Below, in pieces: positions 1-62,395 of a stretch of 64,000 bases of DNA (position 1 is the first letter of the stretch; the number at the start of each line of letters is the position of its first letter). The DNA is from Harriotta raleighana (Eukaryota), in assembly GCA_050575255.1 (NCBI GenBank), contig JBNZDD010013722.1, positions 8,172,880 to 8,236,879 on the forward strand, in the 5' to 3' direction. Under the pieces are notes generated by a model. That model made no database searches. It saw only the letters and a list, made by a program, of their open reading frames with translations, and had not been told where the DNA came from. A program made the position numbers and the translations under genes.

Positions 1-399
1 CCACCAGGAATACACAATCAGCTAATAATGACTTAACAACAATCATGATGGATTTGCTTGAACCATGAGTCAACAGCCACAGGGGGAACTCTCCAGTAAC
101 CAGCGATATCCAGTTAGGTGGGGTAATGGAATACGTTTGGAACGATGAACTTTCCTCTGCCGCCATTCTCTGCGCGAATGCCCAGGTGTGCACAGAATGC
201 AGCAGTGTTAGTGAAATACTGTATACTCATGCTGAAAGCAATGATTAGTAAAGGAGTCCCAAGGGTAAAGATGACAGCTGATAGAGATGACGTTTGTTAA
301 CCCAGCAAAATACCGAGTCTTCTGTGCAACTCACTACATCATAAAGTAATATATACAAGATAAGATTCATACCACTGTATGTGACTAATATGTTACAGT

Positions 400-700
400 G
401 GAGTCCTGTAGCTCAGTGGTTAGAGCACTTGCCTTACAAGCGTGAGACCTGTGGTCAAATGCAGGTCGGGGAGAAACTTTGAGCAAGTTCCCTTACTCTA
501 TGCACTTAATAATAATCCCTCCAAAAAAACCACAATGATAAAATTTGTCATTTCAATCCACGGCTGTTTGTGGGTTACTGCTGTGCGCAATTGGTTGCCG
601 TGTTTTGCCCACAAATATACAGTCAATTCACTTTACAGTATATTCTGTGAAGTGCTTTGAGACGTCTAGAGGATGTGAATATATATATATATATATATAT
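400..700 (+). mobile_element. tRNA-derived Deu-domain SINE with L2-type tail (dominant family; resembles elephant-shark SINE2/EshSINE types)
   Basis: Head ggagtcctgtagctcagtggttagagcac (A box, tRNA arm CTTACAA); core ggctgtttgtggg..ctgctgtgcgcaattggttgccg; tail gtgaagtgctttgagacgtc ending in (TA)n. Confidence 0.9.
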
Positions 701-749
701 AATATACAAGAATTTTTATTATTATGTTTGCAGGATTATAATAATGATA

Positions 750-1037
750 ATAATAATCCTTGCATTTGATACAGTGCTTTTCACGTTTTTTTTAGACATC
801 TCAAAGCGCTTCACAGCATATATTGTAAAGTGAATTGACTACATTTGTAGGTGAAACGCAGCAGCCAATAGTCCACAGCAGTGCCCCACAAACAGTCGTG
901 TATTGAAATGACCAATTTATTGTAGCTATTTTTTTGAGGGATTATTATTAGGCATGTGATTTTACTCTGCCTGGATTCAAATACAGGTCTCACGTTTGTA
1001 AGGCGAGTTCTCCAATCACTGAGCTATAGTACTCCAC
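750..1037 (-). mobile_element. Same Deu-SINE family, tail-to-tail with the 400-700 copy
   Basis: taataatccttgcatttgata...ctgagctatagtactcc is the reverse complement of the family consensus. Confidence 0.9.
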
Positions 1038-4000
1038 ATTACAGTTTAAATCCTAAAACTGTTTCTGGTAATACTTCTCTCCTGAGCTCAGAAACATCAC
1101 TGTATTCTAGCATGCATTAAGTTTTGCCTCAACATTGCACATTCATGTAGTACGTTAAGGGATACGGTGAGAGAGTAGAGAGGGTGGGATTTGAGTAAAT
1201 TGCAGTATGCAGGCCGAGGGAATGGTTTGGGGCAGTCTTCTTAACTTCCTTTGGACAAGAAAAATTGCTTTTGAGTTAGGGCTCGAATTTTAGCAAGACT
1301 TTCCCTTAATGTCCTGAATCACAGAAAAAATAATCACTGTACAATTTTCACCATACCGCCTCATTGTTGTGCTGTTGCAATGCTCGGAGTATCTGTGCTA
1401 CGTGAAGGGCTTTATAAAAATGCAAGTTGTTATTGTTGAAATTTCAGAATATCTCCCCAAATCTCTGACTTGCATGCCATATTTTATAGTAGCACAGTTT
1501 CGAAATATGGCTGCTTGATATTGTCTACCTTGTGTCAAAATATAGCAAAATGTATTCCGGCAACACAGGATATAACTCTGACTCCAACAGCGTCAAGGTG
1601 CTGCATTGTCGGAGCTGCTATTCTTCGGATGAGACGTTAAAATTGAAGTCCCATCTACCTATTCAGGTGGATTGTAAAGATCATTCACTTGTAGGACGGT
1701 GTACAAACTGCTTGTGTTCCCCTACAAATTACAGTAGTCACTAAAACAACAAATTTACACATAAATAGCACTTTTCATGTCAGCAACACGTTTCAAAGTG
1801 TTATATCTAATGCAAGGATCATTCTACATTAATGGATCGTTGTACGTGATCTGACCCAGGCAATTTATTAATTCCTCTTACTTCTTAAATACCAGACGCG
1901 CTGCCTTTAAGAAGTAACTTATAAAGACTTTCCATTTTTAAAGCACCTTACATCAAAATGGCTAAAAAAAAATCTTTCACAATGAATCACTGTCAAGGGT
2001 AGTGAAGCAGGATTGTTGGGTCAAATATCTTCTGTCCTGTTCTTCAAATTTCTCAAGCTCTAAAGTTGTTGTGTGAGGAGTCAGACGCGAGGCTCAATAA
2101 GCCACAACACAGACTTTTTAAAATGAATCACAAAAACAGACACTGGACACCAGCTCACGTGTGCCTGTGCAGCATGACTCCTGCTTTATCTGCCGATATG
2201 CAGTGACCCTTAGAAAATCTCAAGAGTTAATAAGATCGCTTCGTATAGCATGTGTGTTTCCTGTTGTGTTTGATGAGCATCAAAACCAAAGCCAATTGAA
2301 AAAATTTAAAGAGACACCATGTGTCCATGACAAAGTGACTGGGAAACCTTTTTTTGGCCTGGGGAGGGAAGAGGGGTTGAAGACTAGATGCATTAATTTT
2401 AACTGATGAGATTGTAAGTAATCGATTCAATGCTGTGTCCCAAACTGATCTACATCTTTGCAGCATTCATGAATTAAACCAAAAGACTCACTTTGCCAAA
2501 AAAAGAAACATTTACAAGGAAGACAGGGGCAGAGCACAGAGTTACAGAACTTTACAATATTTCTTGTGAAGTGCATTGGGATATCTTCCTAACATAAAAA
2601 GCGTTTTACCAAATGTAAGGATCATCATCATGCTCCCTGTCAGTATTGTGAATACTGCATCTTGTTTATAACTGCTCTTAAAAAGATGAACTCCATTTGG
2701 AGCAAGAGGGCATTAGGTCAGAGCTGAGTCCCACAGGTCAACATGAAGAGTATCAAGCTGCCGGCATATTTCAATATTTACGGAGCATTGAAAATTCTCT
2801 GTGACTCCTGCCTTTGAGATCCCTTTAAATGCTTCAGTGATAGTGAAGCTGATACTCCCTTCAGACTTTTTTTTGTTCTCTGAGATATCAAGTGGTCCAC
2901 ATAGTAAGCCACAAAGAGAAATTGATTCAACAAATTGGGCAATGGTTTATTAACAAATAATGGTTTGTTTCTAAATGTCACTCTATTTGGTTACAACAAC
3001 TCACATCCATTACAACCTGTCTTATGTATGGCCATGTATTTATCTTTCAGTCTTTATTATAGAGGGTGTAAACAAGAACCTATCCAATCTGTAATGATGA
3101 AAGGCTTTTCAGAATTGAAATGAGCTGAAGAAAGCAAAGCAATGCAGAAAAAAAAAGCAGAAAAAGAAAAAGGTGTTTTTATTTGTTTGAGGTGTTATCC
3201 TAAAGGAGAAAAAAGAATGGAATGTGAAGCATCAAAAAAGATTCATGTGAATAACTGCATTAGCAGTAAAGATAACGTACAGTAGCTGCTGCTGGATGAT
3301 TGCACAAAGAAAATTGAAATCTCAGTGGTTTATAGATTATAATCATTAAATATGCTTTCTACAAAGGAAGAGATTCCTCTGTTGTCTAACAACCTCTCAG
3401 TAAATATTATGGAAAATATTCTCATTGAAAGAAAATTTACTCAAAAGAATAAATTTTGCAGGAAGGTAATTACAACAAGAGGAGATAGGCTGAGTAATAG
3501 CAATACTGAAACCATGGTGTGCAAGACACATTGCTTCTGAATCACATTGCTTATCGGTTTGAACTCTACATTTATTTACTCGTTGCAAAACGTGGCTGAT
3601 GCAAGGTCAACAGTAACATCGGATATCAGTGAAAGTTCTTTGCTGCCAGCTAGCTGGCCTGGTTGGCATCGCTGGTTGGGGTATATTTAGCTTCACTTAA
3701 ACCCAACAAATATTAGCCGGAGGTGAAGCCCTCTCCCCAAAAACATTTTCAAAAGTGAGACATTAGAAATCTCTGACAGAATCAAAGTTGTTTCAGAAGA
3801 AGAAGGTAATTCAGCCCATCTAATCTTCCAGAACATCCATCCCACTGTTCTTGTGTTGCAGCTTCTTTTTAAAATTAATCTAATGTCCAGGCTTCAGCCA
3901 TCTTTCCCAGCAAGCTGTTCCAGTCGTTAATTATTCATGAGGTAAAGAAAAACTTCCTCTTGGGTTGCGGACGTCTGACGATTGGCAGGATGACAGCTGC

Positions 4001-5059
4001 TCAGTTACAATGGCATTCGTAAGATATCATATCGGAGAAACAATCACTGTTGCTTTTAGTACAATCACGTCTTCAAAAGTTTGTACAAACTGGTTTGATA
4101 CAACTACAAACTTTCCCAAACCCATCTTTGGTGATGGTGCAGTTTAAGGTTAGTCCTGGATTAGGGTGAGGGCCCACCTTTAATTTAAATTGTGTGTCTC
4201 TAAACAATAAAGGAGATCAGTGCAATGGCACCAGTATGGTTTAATAAACCAAGTGTAAATAACTAGTAGGGTCAGCTGCCTGTTATCCAATGCTAAAGGC
4301 AACCTATGCAAAATCTGCAGTTGTTAGAATCTGAGTGACTGATTCTCCCAAGTCAAGATGAGTATAAAGATAGACAAACTCAATTGCTTTTGTCTGATCA
4401 ACTTTGTTTTCTTGAAACCTATATTGTGGTTGTCCTGGATCCCTGCTGTCAGATATGTTCTAACGAACAACAGAGAAGGGTAAATAGTTATAGCTCTGTA
4501 TTTGTTCTGATGGCTTCTGAAAATGTGTTCAATGAGCATTGCTTCTGTATTTTCGAAAAGCCTTGGATGGCAAATTCAGATTAGCAGCAAGAGCTGCTGT
4601 GTAATCCTGCTCCATCCAGCCTGCAAGAGATCTAATTAAAACCGATGTACCAATTTAGTCGTGTCTTCATCACAGGTGGGTCTGAATTAATGGGGAAATG
4701 GAAGTAAATTACCTACATTTGGCATGTCCAGATTGGTGGGCTAATCTGTCAGCACTGACATGCAATAAATATGGCAAGGTAACCTTCTTATTTTTTTCCA
4801 AAAGTATCTCATGTTTGGGCCAAATTTCCTTGCCACTCTGGAGAAGAGCAGCAAATGAAAGTTAAATCAAGCAAATCTATAAACTCTCTGTCAGCTGTCT
4901 TCAATTTAAGCAATGAAACTGGGCCTCATATTTTTCATGGTACATTCAGACATTGAGGTTGGAAAAGCATTTTGAATGGTGTTACTGCAAGAAAAGCACC
5001 TCATGAAATAAACTGTTTTCTGCAAGCAACACCGCTCCCTCACACATCACTTCCTTCAT

Positions 5060-5380
5060 ATAGAGATACACAGAATGGCACTTCACAGAAACAGGTTATT
5101 CAGCCCAACTAGTTCCAACTGGTAATTATATTCCACACAAGGCTCCACTCCTCCTATTCCCCTCATCTAGAACTCTCTATTCACTTCTCCCTCATGTATG
5201 CATCAATTTCCCCTTAAATGCATTGAGGCTTTTTGCTTCAATCACAGCTTCCAGCAGCGAGTTCCACATTCTCATTGCCATCCACATGAAGATGTTCCTC
5301 CTAAACACCCTATTAAATTATTAGATCTATGTTTAACTATCTTATATTCATGCTCCCTTGTTTTGGACTCACTTCAACCC
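5060..5380 (-). mobile_element. Old CR1 3' remnant; others at 6965-7200, 19350-19440, 25850-26210 (+), 48237-49030 (split by a MITE), 62940-63200
   Basis: Degenerate CR1 3' motifs (ggttattcagccca, gagttccacattctca, ttcctcctaaa). Confidence 0.6.
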
Positions 5381-5752
5381 AGAAGACTGTGGGGTTCCTG
5401 GTAATTGGCATCACAGATTCCATTAAGAAATTCATTAAGAAATACTGTAAAATTGGCTCGAATTGACTACTGGTGAGATTTTGGACATTTAAATAACCTT
5501 GTGATTTAAAGATGTGGATTTAAATCTTTGAATGGAGCCCAACATTTTTCTGTTTATGCCAGTTATGCCAACTGATTTAATGCTCCTATTTAAGTTTATT
5601 TTAAATCAATAAAGATAAATAATCTTATAGAATCTCTCTTGCAATTTGACTGTGAAGTTGAAATCAGCATTCAGTACATTCACATCCTGTCCAATGACCA
5701 CATTTGAAATACCAAAGCTTGGTTATTTAACTTATAAAGACATGACCTTATA

Positions 5753-28192: not shown

Positions 28193-29734
28193 AATAATGA
28201 TTGACATACCTGTAATAGATAACGAAAGAACTGAAAGCTTTCTGCTTTAAAATTCATAATGAACAATAACAAATTGATTACTTCAATCCATGACTGTTTG
28301 TGGGACATTGCTGTGTGCGATTGGCTGCTGCATTTCGCCTACACATGTACAGCCAATTCACTTTACAGTATAGTATATTCTGTGAAATGCTTTGAGAAGT
28401 CAAGAAGACAACAACAATTTGCACTTATATAGCACCCTTCGCGTAGGGTAGTTTCCCAGAGAGCCTGACTCCNGATTGGCTGCTGCATTTCGCCTACACA
28501 TGTACAGCCAATTCACTTTACAGTATAGTATATTCTGTGAAATGCTTTGAGAAGTCAAGAAGACAACAACAATTTGCACTTATATAGCACCCTTCGCGTA
28601 GGGTAGTTTCCCAGAGAGCTGTGGTGAGTGGGAAGGTGGCTGAAAAGGGAAGTTTTCAGGATAGATTTGAAAGAGGGAAGAGGAGGCAAGGTGAAGGGAT
28701 TGAGCGAGAGTGTTCCAGAGTTTTGGAGCATAGAAGCTGACCTCTGATGGTGGGGAGGAGGGTGCGAGGACAAGAGGAGGAGGTCAGAGAGGTAGGGAGG
28801 CCAGGGAGTGAATGGATTCGAACATGAGTGTGACGATCTTGAAGTTGATCCATTCAGTGATGCTTGAGGGAAGGTCTCAAACCCACAAACCAACCCACTT
28901 CACTGCACAAATCGGAGAGTTCTTTATCCAGAAATAATAGAATATTAATGGGGCAAGTGTGTAAGTGAGCGCAAGATTAAAGGAGAAAGAAAGGGAGAGA
29001 GAGGGAGAGAGAGAGAGAGAGCAAATAAAGAAGAAACTGTGTTGCCTCACAGTTTCTGGCAACCAGAAACTGTGAGGCAACAAAAGTCAAGTGTTGTGAT
29101 TGTTTTAGAAGGAAAATAGCTGCAGTGCATGAAATATAAAATGTTTCGACAAATTTTTATTTCCATCCATGACTAAGATACATAATTTTTAAGTAGGTGA
29201 ACACACAACAAGGAGTTATTGTGCTCTGTTCTCTAAATGCGCCAAGTCTTAAATGCGGCAAATTGATGGACTTATACAATGGGAAATCCTAACGTAACCA
29301 TTCGTGGAAAGATTCATTTGACTTAATGTTTTGTGCGTAATATGTCCCTAAGGATGGGTGTCGGGAAGAATTTTTTAAATTTATACCTAATATTTATATT
29401 AATGCTTATTATTATTATGCACACAGTATATTCCTGTGAATCTTAGTCCTGAAAGGTGTTACGAAATGTAAGGATTATTATTTAGATCTCAAATCAATTG
29501 CAACCACCTCTGAAATTGCAACATTGGTTACCACTGTCAAACAGAATTAAAACTTCACTTGGAGTACGACAACCTCTAAGTTTATAACAAACTAAACCTA
29601 AATCATGTCACTTTTTGTCTTGCCTCAAGAGTCTGGTCTAGATACACTTAAGCATGCAGATGCTTAAACTTCGAGATGGATATTCTTAAGTGTGGAGATA
29701 GGTATGGAACTTACATACCTAAAATAATAAAATA

Positions 29735-52243: not shown

Positions 52244-52335
52244 TTTTGGATCACATTTTGCAAGCTTAGCAGCATGCCCAATTCGCTCTTCATCTTTTCT
52301 CTGTTGGACCTGCATTCTGACAAATAACGCAGTGC
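52244..52335 (-). CDS. ARMC1: ARMC1 coding exon 2: [30 protein letters not shown](K)
   Basis: Manual translation matches ARMC1 [31 protein letters not shown]; acceptor ccttAG, donor GTAAGT; 92 nt, phase 2. Confidence 0.97.
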
Positions 52336-54234: not shown

Positions 54235-55261
54235 TTGGGGATTTAGGAAAAATAGTAAATAGTGAGGAGGATAGCAGCCATCTGCAAGAAGATATAGAGA
54301 GAATGGTAAAATGTGCAGACACATGGCAGATGAACTTTAATGTAGAGAAATGTGAGGTGATGCATTTTGGGAGGAGAAATTAGGGGTGGCAATATAGGCT
54401 AGATAGTACAATTTTAAGGGGTTGAAGGAACAGAGACCTGCGGCTTTATGTAAGTGATTTTTTGAAGGTGGCAGGACAAGTAGACAAGGCTGTTAAAAAA
54501 AGCATACGGGCTACTAGGCTTTATAAATAGGGGCATAGAGTACTAAAGTCAGGAAGTTCTGACTAACCTCTATAAAACTTTGGTTAGGCCTCAGCTAGAG
54601 TACTGTGTTCAATTCTGGTCACCACACTTTAGGAAGGATGTTAAGGCATTGAAAGGATACAGAGGAGATTTACAAGGATGGTACCAGGAATGAGGGACTT
54701 CAGTTATGATGAAAAGCTAGAGAGGCTAGGTTTATTTTCAATGGAGCAGAGAAGGTTATGAGGAGACCTAATAGAGGTTTTTAAGATTATGAGGGGATTT
54801 GACAAAGTAAACAAGGATAAACTGTTCCCACTGGTATCAGTGACTCGTGGGTCACAGATTTAAAATAGTTTCAAAAAGCAGAAGGGAGGTGTGGAGAATT
54901 TTCTTTACTCAGCGAGTTGTTCGAATCTTTTTTTTTTCGCCCTGAACATTTTCCCTTGCTCGGGTCCTGAACCAATCTGTCCAGCGCCTTGGGACGTCCT
55001 CCTGACGTGAAACACGCTCTATAAGTGTAATTTTGTTGTTGTGTTGTTGTTGTTGTTCGAATCTGGAATGCATTGCCTGAAAAGGTGGTGGAGGCCGATT
55101 CGATAACAATTTTTAAAAGAGGTAGACATTTATTTGGGGAGGACGGGTTTGCACGGATATGGGGAGAGAGCTGGGGAGTGGGATTGAATTGCTCTTTTTA
55201 AAGAGCCGGCACAAACTCGATGGGCCGAATGGCCTCTTTTTGTATCATAAGATTCTATGAT
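54235..55261 (+). mobile_element. CR1 LINE 3' fragment (RT C-terminus) with a nested short L2 insertion
   Basis: LQEDI..WQMNFNVEKCEVMHFG, LYKTLVRPQLEYCVQFWSPH, GDLIEVFKIMRGFD; ends ggcctctttttgtatcataagattctatga; same subfamily as 23464-24107. Confidence 0.93.
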
Positions 55262-57115
55262 TTGTTGGCCAGGACACAGAGAAATTCCCTTCTTCTAACA
55301 TTCACCTGAGTAACCTCAGTTTAACCTCCAATTGCAAGACTTCATCTCCAACAATGCAAAGTTCCCTCAGCGCTGCAAAGGAGTATCAGTGATAAAATCC
55401 TGATAGGGACTTACACGTGTAACTCTCCGACTCTGAGACTACTAAACTACTAAACTGACTAATTAAAATATTACATTTATAGAGATTTATAACACATCAA
55501 AAGCATAAGCACATATTGCATTAGGTCAACAATTGAATAGCAACTGCAAGTTCTGCGCAATACTGTTTGATTTAGTTAAAAACTTGTTATTGAGAAAAAT
55601 AAAAATGCGATTCTCCTCCAGATCTTATTGTACTAATTTATGCATTTTCAACATATAAATACTGTCAAAGAAACATAATGTTAAAAGATGCAGTTTGTTT
55701 TAGTGGTGTTAGTTAGTAGAGTGTTATTAGAGTTTAAGCTGCATGTATCAAATAAGGAATCTTATACACAGTATATTTTAGCTACAGAAACAGTAATCAC
55801 TGATCTCAGGTGTAATTTACTGTGCCATTCTTGTGTAATCCTGAAAGTAAAACATCATTGTCGTAGTGCAATATGGGTACTACCCTAAGGCAACAGCAGC
55901 AAGACAAAGGGTCCTCACAAACTTTTATATTAATCTGCCAATGCTAAGTAGCACTAATGTACTTCATAACAGAGAGCAAAATAAAAAGCTAGATGAAGAA
56001 TACTGTATCTCACACCTCCTTATCGCCAGCTTCAAAGCAGCTTATTGGGGTGGGAAAATGAAATATGACAAAAATCACTGAAGAAAGGGGAGAACATTTA
56101 AAAAAATATATTAACATGAATAGCCAAATGCTGTAACTGTGAAATCTATCACACGCGCTTTACTCACCTCCACATCTCATTACACTAATACTGTCCTACT
56201 TAGCCTTACCAACACTACCTTTCCTGATGTAAACCTGCAGCTTATTCGTTCCCACACCAGACTCTAACAGGAACAAAATTACACATATAGAGCACTTTTC
56301 ACATCAGGAGGATGTACCAAGGTGCTGAACAGTCAGGTCGGGACCCGAGCAAGGGAGAGGGGCAGGGTAGGGAGGAGAGGGGGAGACAATTAGGAGGGGA
56401 AAGTTGGGTGGGCAGCAGAAGGCACAGTCGAAGAGGGTCTTGAGACCGGCCTTGAAGGAGGCGAAAGAGGGAGCGAGGCGAAAGGGGGAGCGAGGCGAAA
56501 GGACTGTGGGATGGAGTTCCAGAGTGTGGCGGCAGAGACTAAAAGCCCATCCGCCGATGGTAGGGCAGGGGACATGGGAGCAGGCTGAATGGAGGGGGCA
56601 GGGAGGTTAATAGGAGGACAGTAGGTCGGTGAGGTGGGGAGGGGGGGGCAAGGCCATGAATGGCCTTGAAGGTGAGGACGAGGATCTTGAATTTGATAAG
56701 TGTATACTCCATAAGTGTAAAACTTCCATTTATTCCATGTCCCAACCATCAGCAGATGAGTCTTCAGCCACTTTGTCTCTCCAACTTTCTCCCTGAATCC
56801 CTCCAAATTCTTATTAATAATAATCAACAATGGCGGAGCCTGACTCCCAGCTGGGGTGGGGGAGGGGTGTTCATAAGCATGGTGAATATGGAAAGTTTGC
56901 AAGCGGGATTTGTAAAAGGGGAGAGGGTCAGGGGGGGATTGCGGGAGTGTTCCAGTTTCGGGGCGTAGTGAAGAACATCGCTACACCCCGAAACTGGATG
57001 AATCCTCACCATGGTCAGGTTCTCACTTAATCTGCGTGAATCACTTTGAGATGTTTCAATTCTTGTGCAAGTTGTATAGTAGTTATACCAGGAAAACAAT
57101 GCAGTTGATGCTGCA

Positions 57116-57308
57116 ATAATAATAATAATCCTTGCATTTGATATAGCACTTTTCACATCTTCTAGACTTCTCAAAGCGATTCACAAAATATTCTGTAAAG
57201 TGAATTGACTGTATATATGTGGGCGAAACGTGGCAGCCAATTACGCACAGCAATGTCCCACAAAGAGTCGGTGCTTGAAATTACCAAGTTTTTTTTGAGA
57301 GGGATTAC
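57116..57308 (-). mobile_element. Deu-SINE 3' half in an ARMC1 intron
   Basis: Tail and Deu core present, head absent. Similar 3' fragments at 9215-9395, 18028-18120, 28260-28410, 32075-32250, 40093-40182 and 51487-51598. Confidence 0.85.
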
Positions 57309-57360
57309 TGGTAGTTATATATAGTAGTTATATGAAACGTCCTCTCTGCCTGTTGGTCTG

Positions 57361-58108
57361 TCTGCCCTTGTCCTCCCTCACCCCACCTTCCCCATCCAAT
57401 CCCTCCTCTGCCAGCTTTGCAAATAAGAAGAACGCAAACTCTAAAAGCAGAAATATTTAAACAACATATATCTAGGGTTAAAGGAATTTCAAACTGTTTT
57501 TAAAAAGAACAAACCCAATGCTTTCTATTCAATGTAAAATTTTCAATCCTCAAGGATTTATCTAGTATTGATGTTCAGCAAGTCTGACTTCAGAATTAAC
57601 CCAACTGTAACAGGAGTGGTTTCATACTCGCTCTTGTTTTGTTCAATCTGAAATAACAATTTATAGATCTGCAGTTTCAACAATAAATTGTCAGATCCAA
57701 AACACTGACTGTCCAGCACTTTGGGATGTCCTCCCAATGTGAAACAACAACAATAAAATGCTTAATAGAATGCAAATACAGTCTACAACCCCATTATAAT
57801 TTGGCCACATAATGCTGGATCACTTATAAGCTCAGTTCTCTGTGGATCTGAGCACGTGGATCAACCAATTCCCCAGATGTCAAAACATGGCCAATTTCCT
57901 ACAAAACGGATGCACTAAACAGTTTATTTGAACTTACCGATAGGGCAGAGTAAACAACTTGAGGGTTTGGGTGATCTAAGAATTCCTTTAACCCTAGATA
58001 TATGTTGTTTAAATATTTCTGCTTTTAGAGTTTGCGTTCTTCTTATTTGCAAAGCTGGCAGAGGAGGGATTGGATGGGGAAGGTGGGGTGAGGGAGGACA
58101 AGGGCAGA
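57361..58108. repeat. Perfect 128-bp inverted repeat (57361-57488 / 57981-58108)
   Basis: tctgcccttgtcc...ggttaaaggaatt is the exact reverse complement of aattcctttaacc...ggacaagggcaga by base-wise reading. Confidence 0.95.
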
Positions 58109-58263
58109 TCTATAAATGGTCATCAGGTCACCATCAATGTGGCTTCCTGCAGGTAGGACAATTGCCTTGTAAGTTAGATTTTGAAAACGGATGCACTAAA
58201 CAGTTTATTTGAACTTACCAATAGGGCAGAGTAAACAACTTGAGGGTTTGGGTGATCTAAGAA
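57903..58263. repeat. 80-bp direct duplication of the ARMC1 start-exon 3' end and donor (57903-57982 copy of 58184-58263, one substitution)
   Basis: Also visible as identical ORF starts [18 protein letters not shown] at 57928 and 58209; the single difference is 57939 g versus 58220 a. Confidence 0.95.
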
Positions 58264-58380
58264 AAGTATCAACCCAGGTAAACATCCCTGATCCTGGACA
58301 ATTGGTCGTCTATTTAGAGGGTCAGATGCCAGATCTCGCAGCTGGTTTACTACTGCTAATGCATCAGGCTCACCACTCAT
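58219..58380 (-). CDS. ARMC1: ARMC1 coding exon 1 (start exon): [54 protein letters not shown]
   Basis: Translation closely matches the vertebrate ARMC1 N-terminus as I recall it (human [40 protein letters not shown]). ATG at 58380-58378; acceptor tttttcAG puts the exon start at 58432; donor GTAAGT at 58218; 162 nt, phase 0. Confidence 0.97.
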
Positions 58381-59272
58381 TGTGCCACCATCCACTTTGC
58401 CATATGTTTGACAACCTTCTGAATATTTCTTTCTGAAAAAGACACAAGACTTAACATTTAGTACATTCGGTACCCACTGATCATATTTAACAAGGCTACA
58501 AATACATACAGGTCCTTCACTAAGCAATTAAGTTAATGTCAAAGTCCTCATTGGAATACCACACAAACACATACTGTATTAGGTCAACAACATCAGGTCT
58601 GTATTTGAAAACCAGTATTGTATATTTTAAAATAATATAAGCCCTTCCTGTGTGTACAAGTTAATCAAAAGTATAAAATAAAAACGTAAAATCTATCTTA
58701 TGGTATAGACTACCATTATACAGTAGTAGATCCCAATGCCACTAGTCAAAACGAGAGAGGAATGAGTCCTGGACAATATTTCCCTGATAAAATTGGTCAT
58801 TCACTTAATGGCTGTTTGTGGGACCCCAATGTAGACAAATCAGCTGCTGTGTTTGTCTACAAATTCAGTCATCAAAAATACAAGAAAATACGATTCAACA
58901 TTTCGCTGAAAGGCCAATAAAAACAAAGGTTGCCCAGAGTTAAAGAAAGAGGGGCGGGAATCCACTTCTACATGTCACTAAGCTGTGGTACAGCACTCAA
59001 AATAGCTTGGGAGAGGCACCGGCCCGTGTGTGGGGCGCCTCTGCTTTGAGGGTCGCGTCTGTCATTCTCAGGGATAAAGAGCGACGACGTCGGTTCACCT
59101 TAGGATGTCCCTTAACCAGCAGCGATTGAGAAGCGGCCAGAGGCCTACCTGGCTATGGGAGCCCCGGGCAGGGAAGCGAGAACGCGCGCGGCCTTCCCTC
59201 TTATCGCAGCCGACTCAGCGTTTCACCTCCAGTCGGGATAGGATAGGACAGGACAGGGCCGGCAGCGCTTAC

Positions 59273-59450
59273 CTTCAATGCAACAACCCACGCCGGCAAC
59301 AAAGGCAAGTAACGGCTCGAATACGTCAGCGGCCGCGAACCACCACCATCAGCTTCAACGGGTTCAGAGAGCTGACCGAGCGCGGGTAAGGAAAGGAGCG
59401 GGGATGCTGACAGCGGGATGAAGTTCAGGCGGAGCCGCGCGTATACAGTC
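59273..59450 (-). other. ARMC1: ARMC1 putative non-coding exon 1 (5' end approximate)
   Basis: Strong donor AAG|GTAAGC at 59272 inside the CpG island, just downstream (minus sense) of CCAAT boxes at 59517-59540; TSS not determinable from sequence. Confidence 0.65.
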
Positions 59451-59819
59451 CCCTCCTCCTCCTCTCGTCAACCACTTCACCAGGGCCGGCCGCACTCGCG
59501 CCATCCCGCTCATCCTATTGGTCCAGTAGCCCCGACCAATCACAGAACGGCTTACTGCGCTGCTTACGGCTGATTGACAATACCACATGCAGTTGGACAC
59601 AAACTCCTTTATTATTATTATGGATTATATTTGCGTTTGAAACACAAGATTCGGTTATTTCAATCAATGTTGTTTTTATTTCAAAAAAACACAACTTTAT
59701 TTTGTAAATAACGACAGCAGCAATAAGGTGGGGGCGGGGGAGGTTTGAACGTGAGCAGGTTCTGTGGGCGGTTGGTGACGCCGTCGCCTCTGATTGGTTG
59801 AGACACACCAGAGGGGGCG

Positions 59820-59925
59820 TCACCGGGGGCTCGAGGCTGACAGTTACAGCGGCCGCCGAGAGAGAGAGAGAAGTGGACAAGGCGAGGGCACCGTGGGCAG
59901 GAGCCGAGTCACCGAGAGGAGCGAG
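59820..59925 (+). other. MTFR1: MTFR1 putative non-coding exon 1 (5' end approximate)
   Basis: Donor GAG|GTAATC at 59926, downstream of the GC box and ATTGG box; next acceptor ctcctttcAG ends at 60480. Confidence 0.5.
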
Positions 59926-60568
59926 GTAATCACAGCTGCCTATAGCACTGGCCATAGGTTAGCGCCTATGGAGGGAGGGAGCTCGGTCGGTAGGTGGAAC
60001 AGCCTTTGCCCCGCTGACCCCGTGAATGGAGAGGATGATGCGCGCAGGTGGCGTGCGGCCCGCGGAGAGAGAGAGAGGAGCCGACGGCTGGCCGGGGGTT
60101 GAAACACTAAACCTCCGGGTGGGGGGGGGTCGGGTCGGTCAGCGGGATTGGGCACCACTGGCCCGGTACCTCTCGGCGGCGATGGCCGATACTCGCGGCG
60201 ATGTGATCGGTCCCCCGGTGTGTTTGTTGTCTATATCGTTTTTATTGTGGAGGGAATTTCGTACGTGGATGCGGCCGATTGTGATGAGGAGTCTGAGTGT
60301 GTGTATGTATGTATGTATGTGAGTGTGTGTGTGTGTTGTCTGGCCGGGTGACTCATTGCATTTCCATTCCGAACTGGCAAACAGAAACACCCAGTGTCTC
60401 GAGTTTTTGCTGCCTGGAAATGGAGACTGAAACACAGCAGGAGATTTGGGGATTTGACGAACAATTGTCTCTCCTTTCAGGACAACCAAAAGCGTTCAAT
60501 GGCTTCCAAGCTCCTGCTTTGTGTTGGATCCTCTTCCTGTGGATGGTAATGCTCCGGGGCGGCTATAA

Positions 60569-60786: not shown

Positions 60787-62395
60787 CATAATCCTTGCGT
60801 TTGATATGTTTAGTGCCTTAACACATCTTTGAGACGTCTCAAAGCGCTTCACAGGTTATACTTTGCAGTGAATTGATTATTTTGTGGCCGAAACACAGCA
60901 GTTGCACTCAGCTGCCAATTGCACACAGCAGTGTCCCACAAACAAACATTGATTGAGTGACCAAATTTTGTTTTTTAAACTGTTTCTGATGTGATTATTA
61001 TCCCCGGAGAAGCCATCCACCAATCAGCTATTACTTACTGCTAAGTAAAGAGGCATGTGGAGAAAGGAAACTTAGCTTTTATTTCGCCCTACTGGGAATC
61101 AAACTCGGGTCATCTCACCAGGGCTCTAAGCACTAAGCTACATTTCAAATGACTAATTGGTCAGCCCCTTAAAAACAGCTGTTATCGCCCCCATCCTGAA
61201 AAAACTTTCCCTGGACCCATCCCTACTCTCCAGTCACTGCCCCATCTCCAACCTCCCATTCTTCCAAGGTCCTGGAATGAGTTGTCGCATCCCAGCTTTG
61301 CTCTTTTGTTTCCTGCCATTCCCTCTTTGAACCCCCGGTCAAAGCTCGGATGACATTGTAAACATCTGTTACTACCTCCTTGACTTCTCTGCTACCTTCG
61401 ACACCGTTAACCACTCTATCCTCCTTGACCACCTCTCTGCTCAGCTCAATCTTTTTGGACCTGCCCTTGCCTGGTTCCAATCTTATCTCTCCCACCGTCT
61501 CCACTAAGTTGCCACTTTTCCTCCAGCACCACGTAATGTCCTCCAAGNCCAATCTTATCTCTCCCACCGTCTCCACTAAGTTGCCACTTTTCCTCCAGCA
61601 CCATGTAATGTCCTCTGTCGTGTCCCTCCCCATTTCAATATCTATGCTCCCCTTGGTGACATAAACCACAGACATGGGGTCAACTTCCATATGTGTGCAG
61701 ATGATACCTCTCTCTGCCTCCACCTATATTTCTAGGACCACTACTGACAGATTGGTGAACATCAGTCCTGGATGAAAATTAACATTCTACAGTTGAATGT
61801 CAGCAAGACCGAGGACCTCTTGATTCTCTCACACCAGGTTGGCTTGGGATTAGGAGGTCATAAAGGTGGAGGGGCAAGGCCATGGAGAGCTTTGCATGGG
61901 CTTACCCCTCCACCTCTATACCATGCATCACATATCATTGTGGAACTCCTGTGGCTCAGTGGTTAGAGAACTCGCCTTACATGCCTTACAAGCATGAGGC
62001 CTGTGTTCGAATCCAGGCAGATCAGGGCGAAATCTTGGGCAAGTTTCCTTACTCCACATGCCTAATAATAATCCCTCCAAAAAAAACTACAATAATAAAA
62101 TTGGTCATTTCAATTCATGACTGTTTGTGGGACACTGCTGTGCGCNTGTTTGAATCCAAGCAGATCAGGACGAAACCTTGGGCAAGTTCCCTTACTCCAC
62201 ACACCTAATAATAATCTGTCCAAAAAAAACACAATAATAAAATTGGTCATTTCAATCCATGTCTGTTTGTGGGACACTGCTGCCGCATTTCGCCCTCAAA
62301 TACAGTCAATTCACTACAATCTATTCTGTGAAGCGCTTTGAGACGTTGATAAGATGTGAAAAGCGTTAGATCAAATGCAAAGATTATTATTATTG
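60787..62395. mobile_element. MTFR1 intron repeat cluster: degenerate Deu-SINE (60787-61140, -), L2 RT fragment (~61160-61835, +), Deu-SINE (61941-62395, +)
   Basis: L2 RT remnants DFSATFDTVNHSILL and catatgtgtgcagatgatacc (YADDT-like); SINE consensus. Confidence 0.8.

Follow-up and report, generated by a model that had tools for sequence, protein, structure and literature searches.

Intron 2 of the ARMC1 gene of Harriotta raleighana raises the question whether one mutation can create a new exon and, at the same time, the RNA structure that silences it. In the window, as we call the whole stretch of 64,000 nucleotides analysed here (assembly GCA_050575255.1, contig JBNZDD010013722.1, positions 8,172,880 to 8,236,879 of the forward strand), the intron carries two arms, 57361-57488 and 57981-58108, which are exact reverse complements over 128 nt and lie 492 nt apart, together with a second copy of the donor of exon 2. 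An earlier note on this DNA had proposed that the same event gave rise to a candidate exon and to a silencing duplex over its acceptor, and that inclusion of the exon could depend on transcription speed, helicases or ADAR editing. Positions given below are those of the window (Table 1), and papers are cited by PMC number.

Table 1: Features of ARMC1 intron 2 and its surroundings, in window positions
Feature	Position	Strand	Remark
ARMC1 exon 2, first coding exon, ATG at 58380	58219-58432	-	translation; top atlas hit; spliced ends in RNA-type run of a relative
ARMC1 authentic donor	58218-58213	-	
ARMC1 exon 3, closes the 5.9-kb intron 2	52244-52335	-	
Old intron 2 stretch, not inserted	58118-58183	-	single-copy in genome; collinear in relatives from 58119 or 58122
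Patchwork insertion, 218 nt	57900-58117	.	lineage-specific; contigs of relatives cross the site without it
Direct copy of 58184-58263	57903-57982	-	last 45 nt of exon 2 and first 35 nt of intron 2; 1/80 differs
Proximal arm	57981-58108	-	inverted copy of 57361-57488, inside insertion; exact match
Third piece, 14-nt inverted copy of 57659-57672	58104-58117	-	5-nt overlap with arm
Distal arm	57361-57488	-	template, within old repeat remnant; flanking homology to family copies on both sides
Loop, 492 nt, with duplicated donor	57489-57980	-	
Old dispersed-repeat remnant, source of both inverted pieces	57115-57759	.	77-82% identical to other copies
Candidate pseudo-exon, 117 nt	57938-58054	-	frame-preserving length, stops at codons 4 and 10; sequence-defined only
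Duplicated donor GTAAGT	57932-57937	-	context TCG/GTAAGT versus TTG/GTAAGT at the real site
Cryptic C-rich pyrimidine tract and AG	58055-58075	-	AG at 58056-58055

The host gene

ARMC1, which is described as a conserved mitochondrial-distribution gene (PMC11980836), hosts the hairpin in its second intron (58218-52336, minus strand, 5.9 kb), where it begins 110 nt downstream of the real donor. Translation of the exon 58432-58219 gave an armadillo-type sequence with 'Armadillo repeat-containing protein 1' as the top atlas hit (0.96). The Pfam Arm match on the exon 2 peptide stayed under its cut-off, and a PDB sequence search with the peptide returned designed armadillo repeats and Vac8 only. With the later exons being found via short motifs of the human protein, we could join six ARMC1 coding exons with canonical splice sites into an open frame of 275 codons. 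The authentic donor is confirmed by an RNA-type run of a relative (X15), in which a contig covers 58218-58428 and carries loose, spliced ends matching exon 3 and the end of exon 1; as this relative is without the insertion described below, its run bears on the exon boundaries only.

Just to the right of the window a gene of the MTFR family (PF05308, three exon hits) is located at contig positions 8237965-8243438 on the plus strand, head-to-head with ARMC1 and with a GC-rich shared promoter region at about 59000-60300. Human ARMC1 and MTFR1 stand head-to-head as well. A second ARMC1-like exon was found on another contig (C13700:4253491-4253634, plus strand, 65% identity over 48 residues), again head-to-head with a different MTFR-family gene, and this retained paralogous pair could buffer a loss of ARMC1.

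The hairpin and its predicted fold

Arm coordinates, spacing, the position of an AG inside one arm and of a GTAAGT in the loop had all been given correctly by the earlier note, as judged from exact matching and folding, and searching inwards and outwards revealed no extension of the pairing at either end. When the minus strand of 57300-58250 was folded as RNA (951 nt), as had been suggested there, the full stem was obtained with all 128 pairs present at -412 kcal/mol and none of 20 shuffled sequences was as good (z -27.6); as a computed structure the hairpin is far beyond chance. The duplex itself has a computed energy of -251 kcal/mol, and its arms contain 41 and 32 adenosines. On the minus strand the proximal arm includes the cryptic C-rich tract, the AG at 58056-58055 and most of the candidate exon (74 of 117 nt), while the duplicated GTAAGT (57937-57932) sits 43 nt inside the loop, meaning that in silico the stem overlaps a cryptic splice site and loops out a donor. 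Within the loop, the complete fold also has the duplicated donor paired (57575-57584 with 57932-57941, unpaired probability 0.02). The only mismatch between the two direct copies would change a G-U to a G-C pair in this small helix, which is probably chance.

A search of 57000-58600 against Rfam gave no match at E<=0.1. No covariation exists in the stem since the arms are identical, and a test as conserved complementary region failed at the conservation step, the proximal arm being missing in three of three relatives. The same intron holds an older, imperfect inverted pair (54952-55042 and 56267-56356, 83-95% over 66 and 19 nt), so the young hairpin is not the only place where double-stranded RNA could form.

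As a control, inverted repeats at least 97% identical and within 2 kb were counted in 140 unselected 10-kb stretches of this genome (1.4 Mb). One of at least 100 nt and two of at least 50 nt were present, which extrapolates to about 800 (20-4400) and about 1600 (190-5700) per genome, respectively. The longer control pair (L063:8157-9877, 190 nt at 99.5%) may lie across an assembly join, as its spacer includes one N, and no long open frame was found between its arms; the shorter one (L035:8260-9786) has 57 nt at 98%. Beside neither of them is there a direct duplication. A near-perfect local inverted repeat is uncommon in this genome, not unique.

Pieces and templates of the insertion

The proximal arm is part of an insertion of 218 nt, placed to within about 4 nt at its outer edges, which is composed of 3 unassigned nt, 80 nt in direct, 128 nt in inverted and again 14 nt in inverted orientation, overlapping by 2 and 5 nt. 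Three templates, all at most 540 nt away, account for 215 of the 218 inserted nucleotides. The direct copy (57903-57982) shares 2 nt with the proximal arm, and the inner joins show microhomology of 2 and 5 nt. For the third piece the chance of a 14-mer match within 2.3 kb is about 4e-5, and 0.05 if only its 9 non-overlapping nucleotides are counted. The 3 remaining nucleotides have a 6-nt inverted match at 58153-58158, too short for a claim. Microhomologies of 3 and 4 nt that had been predicted at the outer joins are not borne out by the contigs of the relatives. Another description of the locus, as an 80-nt tandem duplication plus a 201-nt insert with 66 nt that had no known source, was rejected, as the relatives show 58118/58122-58183 to be old intron; a search for a source of 58118-58183 in the genome matched only the stretch itself.

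The insertion is derived with respect to the ancestral state and its pieces map to the flanks of the junction, placing it among the templated insertions. As 57900-58117, which is missing in the relatives, contains the cryptic acceptor, the donor copy and the arm that pairs with the template, one insertion supplied all three, and in this respect the idea of a common event behind exon signals and duplex is supported.

The arm sequence has 31 matches in this genome, of which the arms themselves account for two (100%), while the other 29 show 78-89% identity. Being a piece of a dispersed repeat, it might have come to lie here twice through independent insertions of one mobile element in opposite orientation, in the manner of an Alu pair. 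Against this stand the perfect identity of the two arms, from which the other copies are so distant, and the shape of the proximal arm: homology to the repeat copies continues over 57115-57759 around the distal arm, whereas the proximal one is an exact internal cut of 128 nt that has no element ends. Furthermore, at eight positions the distal arm differs from all six family copies aligned (of eight fetched), and the proximal arm agrees with it at all eight. These private letters show that the proximal arm was copied from the local remnant and is not a second element insertion; one arm being a copy of the other, the locus failed the test for the Alu-pair class, and independent insertion is ruled out to the point that we give it practically no weight. 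The dispersed repeat itself is 650-850 nt long or more, and close to each of its two ends lie related short segments of high copy number, oppositely oriented.

Age and authenticity of the insertion

We used 8 of the 23 listed sequencing runs, four of them from three differently labelled relatives over 57765-58560. In X5 and X11 one contig each joins 57899 to 58122 with 5 letters between (shorter sides 135 and 34), and X15 has a contig linking 57824 to 58119 over 79 letters, as many as should lie there if nothing is inserted; the latter bridge is weaker, having 24 letters on its shorter side. X13, from the same organism as X15, gave no contig bridging the site. The insertion is absent from all three relatives examined.

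The junctions were checked in four runs (X21, X22, X1 and X2) from two studies and at most three samples, and one of these samples may be that of the assembly. They were seen in contigs of two further samples from the study that matched best. One X1 contig spans the junction between copy and arm with 78 and 254 letters on either side. Contigs of X1 and X2, which are different samples, end 30 letters into the direct repeat coming from both left flanks, and in X2 one contig starts exactly at 57361 and another covers 58079-58213 (30 letters on the arm side, one below the bridging rule). Such breaks are those expected of a graph branching at real repeats. In a third sample, raw reads cover 57948-58211 at a depth of about 1-6, and among the joints listed at that depth none skips the insertion. 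The insertion allele is common to more than one sample.

Copies and templates differ at 1 of 208 sites (0.5%, 95% range 0.01-2.7%), while 58122-58218 shows 8/97 and 7/97 differences to X5 and X11 among the sites listed. In the duplicated part of the intron the copy has the letter of the window at all five sites where a relative differs. From these counts the insertion would fall into the final stretch, roughly 6% and no more than a third, of the divergence from X5 and X11.

It could still be argued that collapsed or mis-joined reads produced both the duplication and the inverted copy, as one or more duplications in this assembly surround a single-N join (154 nt at 28473), no one record contains the insertion from end to end and a compared run may be the assembled sample. 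On the other side there are no N letters in 57000-59500, the two direct copies differ at one site, and the X1 contig over the junction, the contig ends in X1 and X2 and the reads of the third sample agree with the assembly. Relatives lacking the insertion and junctions being present in other samples, the insertion is recent and not a mis-join; the artefact, which the earlier note had named as one of the ways in which its proposal could fail, is largely ruled out and appears highly improbable.

Several other irregularities were seen in the same data. The 154-nt tandem duplication (28318-28619) is centred on its N at 28473 and likely is an assembly join artefact, and an N (61548) likewise marks the junction of a 72-nt duplication at 61477-61615. 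An apparent arm-breaking variant, G58036A (equivalent to C57433T), was rejected: it is the usual letter of the repeat family, occurs in paralogous contigs of the relatives and was taken as cross-mapping. Counts of A>G come from DNA runs and are not editing. At 58154 two of four read pairs of X22 show a T/A difference, with the A also present in X5 and not in X11, which is possibly an old polymorphism beside the insertion.

Splice signals of the candidate exon

Between the two donors the best AG is the one at 58056-58055, which would give a 117-nt exon after a 164-nt intron. It is preceded by 14 pyrimidines in 17 nt and is among only 5 of the 343 intron-2 AGs with at least 14, but these include 5 T compared to 8-11 T at the six real acceptors, acceptor strength being judged here from simple base counts. 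The donor copy comprises a full-consensus GTAAGT together with 43 nt of the true exon end. The stop at codon 4 of the pseudo-exon lies 105 nt before the end of the exon and has five exons downstream, in agreement with a poison exon, and direct use of the copied donor would lead to a stop at codon 15. Stop-bearing products of either route are expected to undergo nonsense-mediated decay. At in-frame acceptors that would avoid the stops (58023, 58020 and 57987) no more than 6-9 of 19 nt are pyrimidines. The same intron offers other acceptor-donor configurations for a pseudo-exon, 56077-56014 and 56077-55919, with a T-richer acceptor.

Predicted masking and its possible role

Regarding the silencing duplex, one half of the original proposal is supported by the fold. 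The predicted unpaired probability of tract and AG drops from 0.62 before the distal arm is made to 0.00 afterwards, and for a branch-point-like CTCAC, the tract and the AG together it is 0.00 in the full fold compared to 0.5-0.6 earlier. The real donor, upstream of the stem and outside of it, stays at 0.5-0.66. As transcription reaches the partner of the AG only 643 nt past the AG and 524 nt past the copied donor, masking of the acceptor is predicted to set in after a delay. The other half, that the exon would be included if the hairpin were absent, fares worse in view of the 5 T in 17 nt of its acceptor, the stop at codon 4, the three of three relatives without the structure and the youth of the insertion, which explains the pairing.

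Does the allele then need its stem? According to one reading, the insertion of a poison exon was harmful and persisted only because its own stem, without any regulation, hides the acceptor and loops out the donor. The complete predicted pairing of CTCAC, tract and AG with the real donor left outside, and the rarity of so pyrimidine-rich an AG in this intron, are in line with it; in humans, an enrichment of complementary regions at cryptic sites and a lower inclusion of looped-out exons are described (PMC8052449), and inversions are described to create pseudo-exons in DMD (PMC7175933). However, the acceptor is poor in T, transcription of the pseudo-exon is complete while the partner of its AG is still 524 nt away, which would leave a period without any action of the stem, and the preference for an upstream donor requires no structure at all. 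There is also no sign of selection on the pairing. Arms and direct copies differ at 0/128 and 1/80 sites (Fisher p 0.38, with one difference in all and little power), so youth alone explains the perfect pairing and no selection is needed. We regard this dependence on the stem, the main rival of the origin proposed below, as rather unlikely.

Still further goes the suggestion that elongation rate, helicases or ADAR editing tune the inclusion of the poison exon and with it the dose of ARMC1. A perfect 128-bp duplex within 2 kb resembles the ADAR-edited Alu pairs (PMC2533698), and the 643 nt between the AG and its partner could be understood as a kinetic window. But three of three relatives do without the structure and it is very young, editing of the stem is expected whether it matters or not, and by our own reasoning a coding exon would need both TAA stops to be doubly edited. 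Such a regulated switch we consider very improbable.

Proposed origin and meaning

We favour another account as the probable one: a three-template insertion, likely made in one template-switching repair or replication event, with the hairpin as a by-product that is predicted in the pre-mRNA and likely neither selected nor regulated. A break or a stalled fork near 57899 would start the event. The DNA end would first copy the boundary of exon 2 and intron 2, which lies about 66-145 nt away on one side, would then copy the opposite strand of the repeat remnant 411-538 nt and 227-240 nt away on the other side, and would finally be rejoined. When a backwards copy ends up in the intron that holds its source, the two must pair, and the new acceptor was therefore born inside the stem. 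Splicing from exon 2 to exon 3 would most likely continue, with the upstream donor used first and the new acceptor being mediocre; masking by the stem would come on top of this, and the rare transcripts that include the exon would be lost to nonsense-mediated decay. As pieces of 80 and 128 nt are much larger than the usual insertion made by polymerase theta (<25 bp), the enzyme cannot be assigned to it, and only the 14-nt piece passes the test for piece size.

Some points count against the scar. Considering the full-consensus donor and the intact ARMC1 frame of 275 codons, the allele may well depend on some silencing; it is shared by more than one sample, and the microhomologies predicted at the outer joins did not appear. 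The neutrality of the hairpin we infer from missing signs of selection, for which one difference in all gives little power.

Overall the evidence points to an ordinary scar of a templated insertion, and self-masking is a neat reading that stays a candidate only. In its general form, which we regard as speculative and doubtful, it would state that intronic inverted templated insertions are born self-silenced: their new splice signals would lie within a duplex formed with the template, and harmful pseudo-exons would escape purifying selection from the outset and be unmasked slowly as the arms diverge, with the ARMC1 poison exon being held off only by its own 128-bp stem. If true, this would be a route to new exons that needs no pair of mobile elements, with the ARMC1 allele as a clean natural test case, and it would show how a mutation building a poison exon in a conserved mitochondrial-distribution gene can be tolerated. 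It would also point to a general rule by which intronic inverted duplications could be assessed, both in evolution and in clinical variant calling. As it stands, the locus is a well-resolved germline repair scar with three templates mapped and the ancestral state known, and the 218-nt insertion can serve as a presence/absence marker for this lineage.

Comparison with known systems

We found no literature on this locus or on self-masking by an inverted templated insertion, which is a weak absence as most subscription papers lay outside the search. The closest relatives of the insertion are those ascribed to microhomology-mediated end joining by polymerase theta and to serial template switching (FoSTeS/MMBIR), with which it shares multiple pieces derived from the flanks in both orientations, microhomology of 2-5 nt as far as its inner joins are concerned, few unassignable bases and an inverted repeat made in one step. 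Patchwork insertions in end joining are reported to be generally below 25 bp (PMC12426944), and templated insertions are also described at the junctions of tandem duplications (PMC8654963). In contrast to the products of polymerase theta, the long ARMC1 pieces of 80 and 128 nt come from up to about 540 nt away, and at the outer joins no microhomology could be shown. Template switching is known as a one-step source of hairpins (PMC5453318, PMC8794818), and such structures can be kept without selection (PMC5453318). Like these hairpins, the ARMC1 stem is perfect and would derive from one mutation, but these studies deal with a short, single switch and return, whereas here at least three templates, a stem of 128 bp and a loop of 492 nt are involved.

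Small inverted triplications (PMC13334657) are similar in their size of 100-200 nt and in combining direct and inverted copies after a replication error. They consist of one segment in a DUP/IN/DUP arrangement, while the direct and inverted pieces in ARMC1 have different templates, and the locus therefore failed the test for this class.

On the RNA level, intronic duplexes affect splicing and are edited (PMC2533698, PMC8052449). With inverted Alu pairs and conserved complementary regions the ARMC1 hairpin shares a long intronic duplex within 2 kb over a cryptic site with a donor looped out. Unlike in these systems its arms are neither independent copies nor conserved, and an effect on splicing or editing is hypothetical; the ARMC1 feature is outside the Alu-pair class as well as the class of conserved RNA structures. 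The duplicated donor finally has a parallel in the 5' pseudo-sites of intron 7 of human F7, where an exon-intron boundary is also repeated downstream of the real donor and the identical duplicated donors remain silent (PMC1557585). F7 shows a tandem array of 37 bp with no new acceptor between its copies, whereas ARMC1 has a single copy, 281 nt away and behind a new AG, and it is this position that makes a cassette exon possible.
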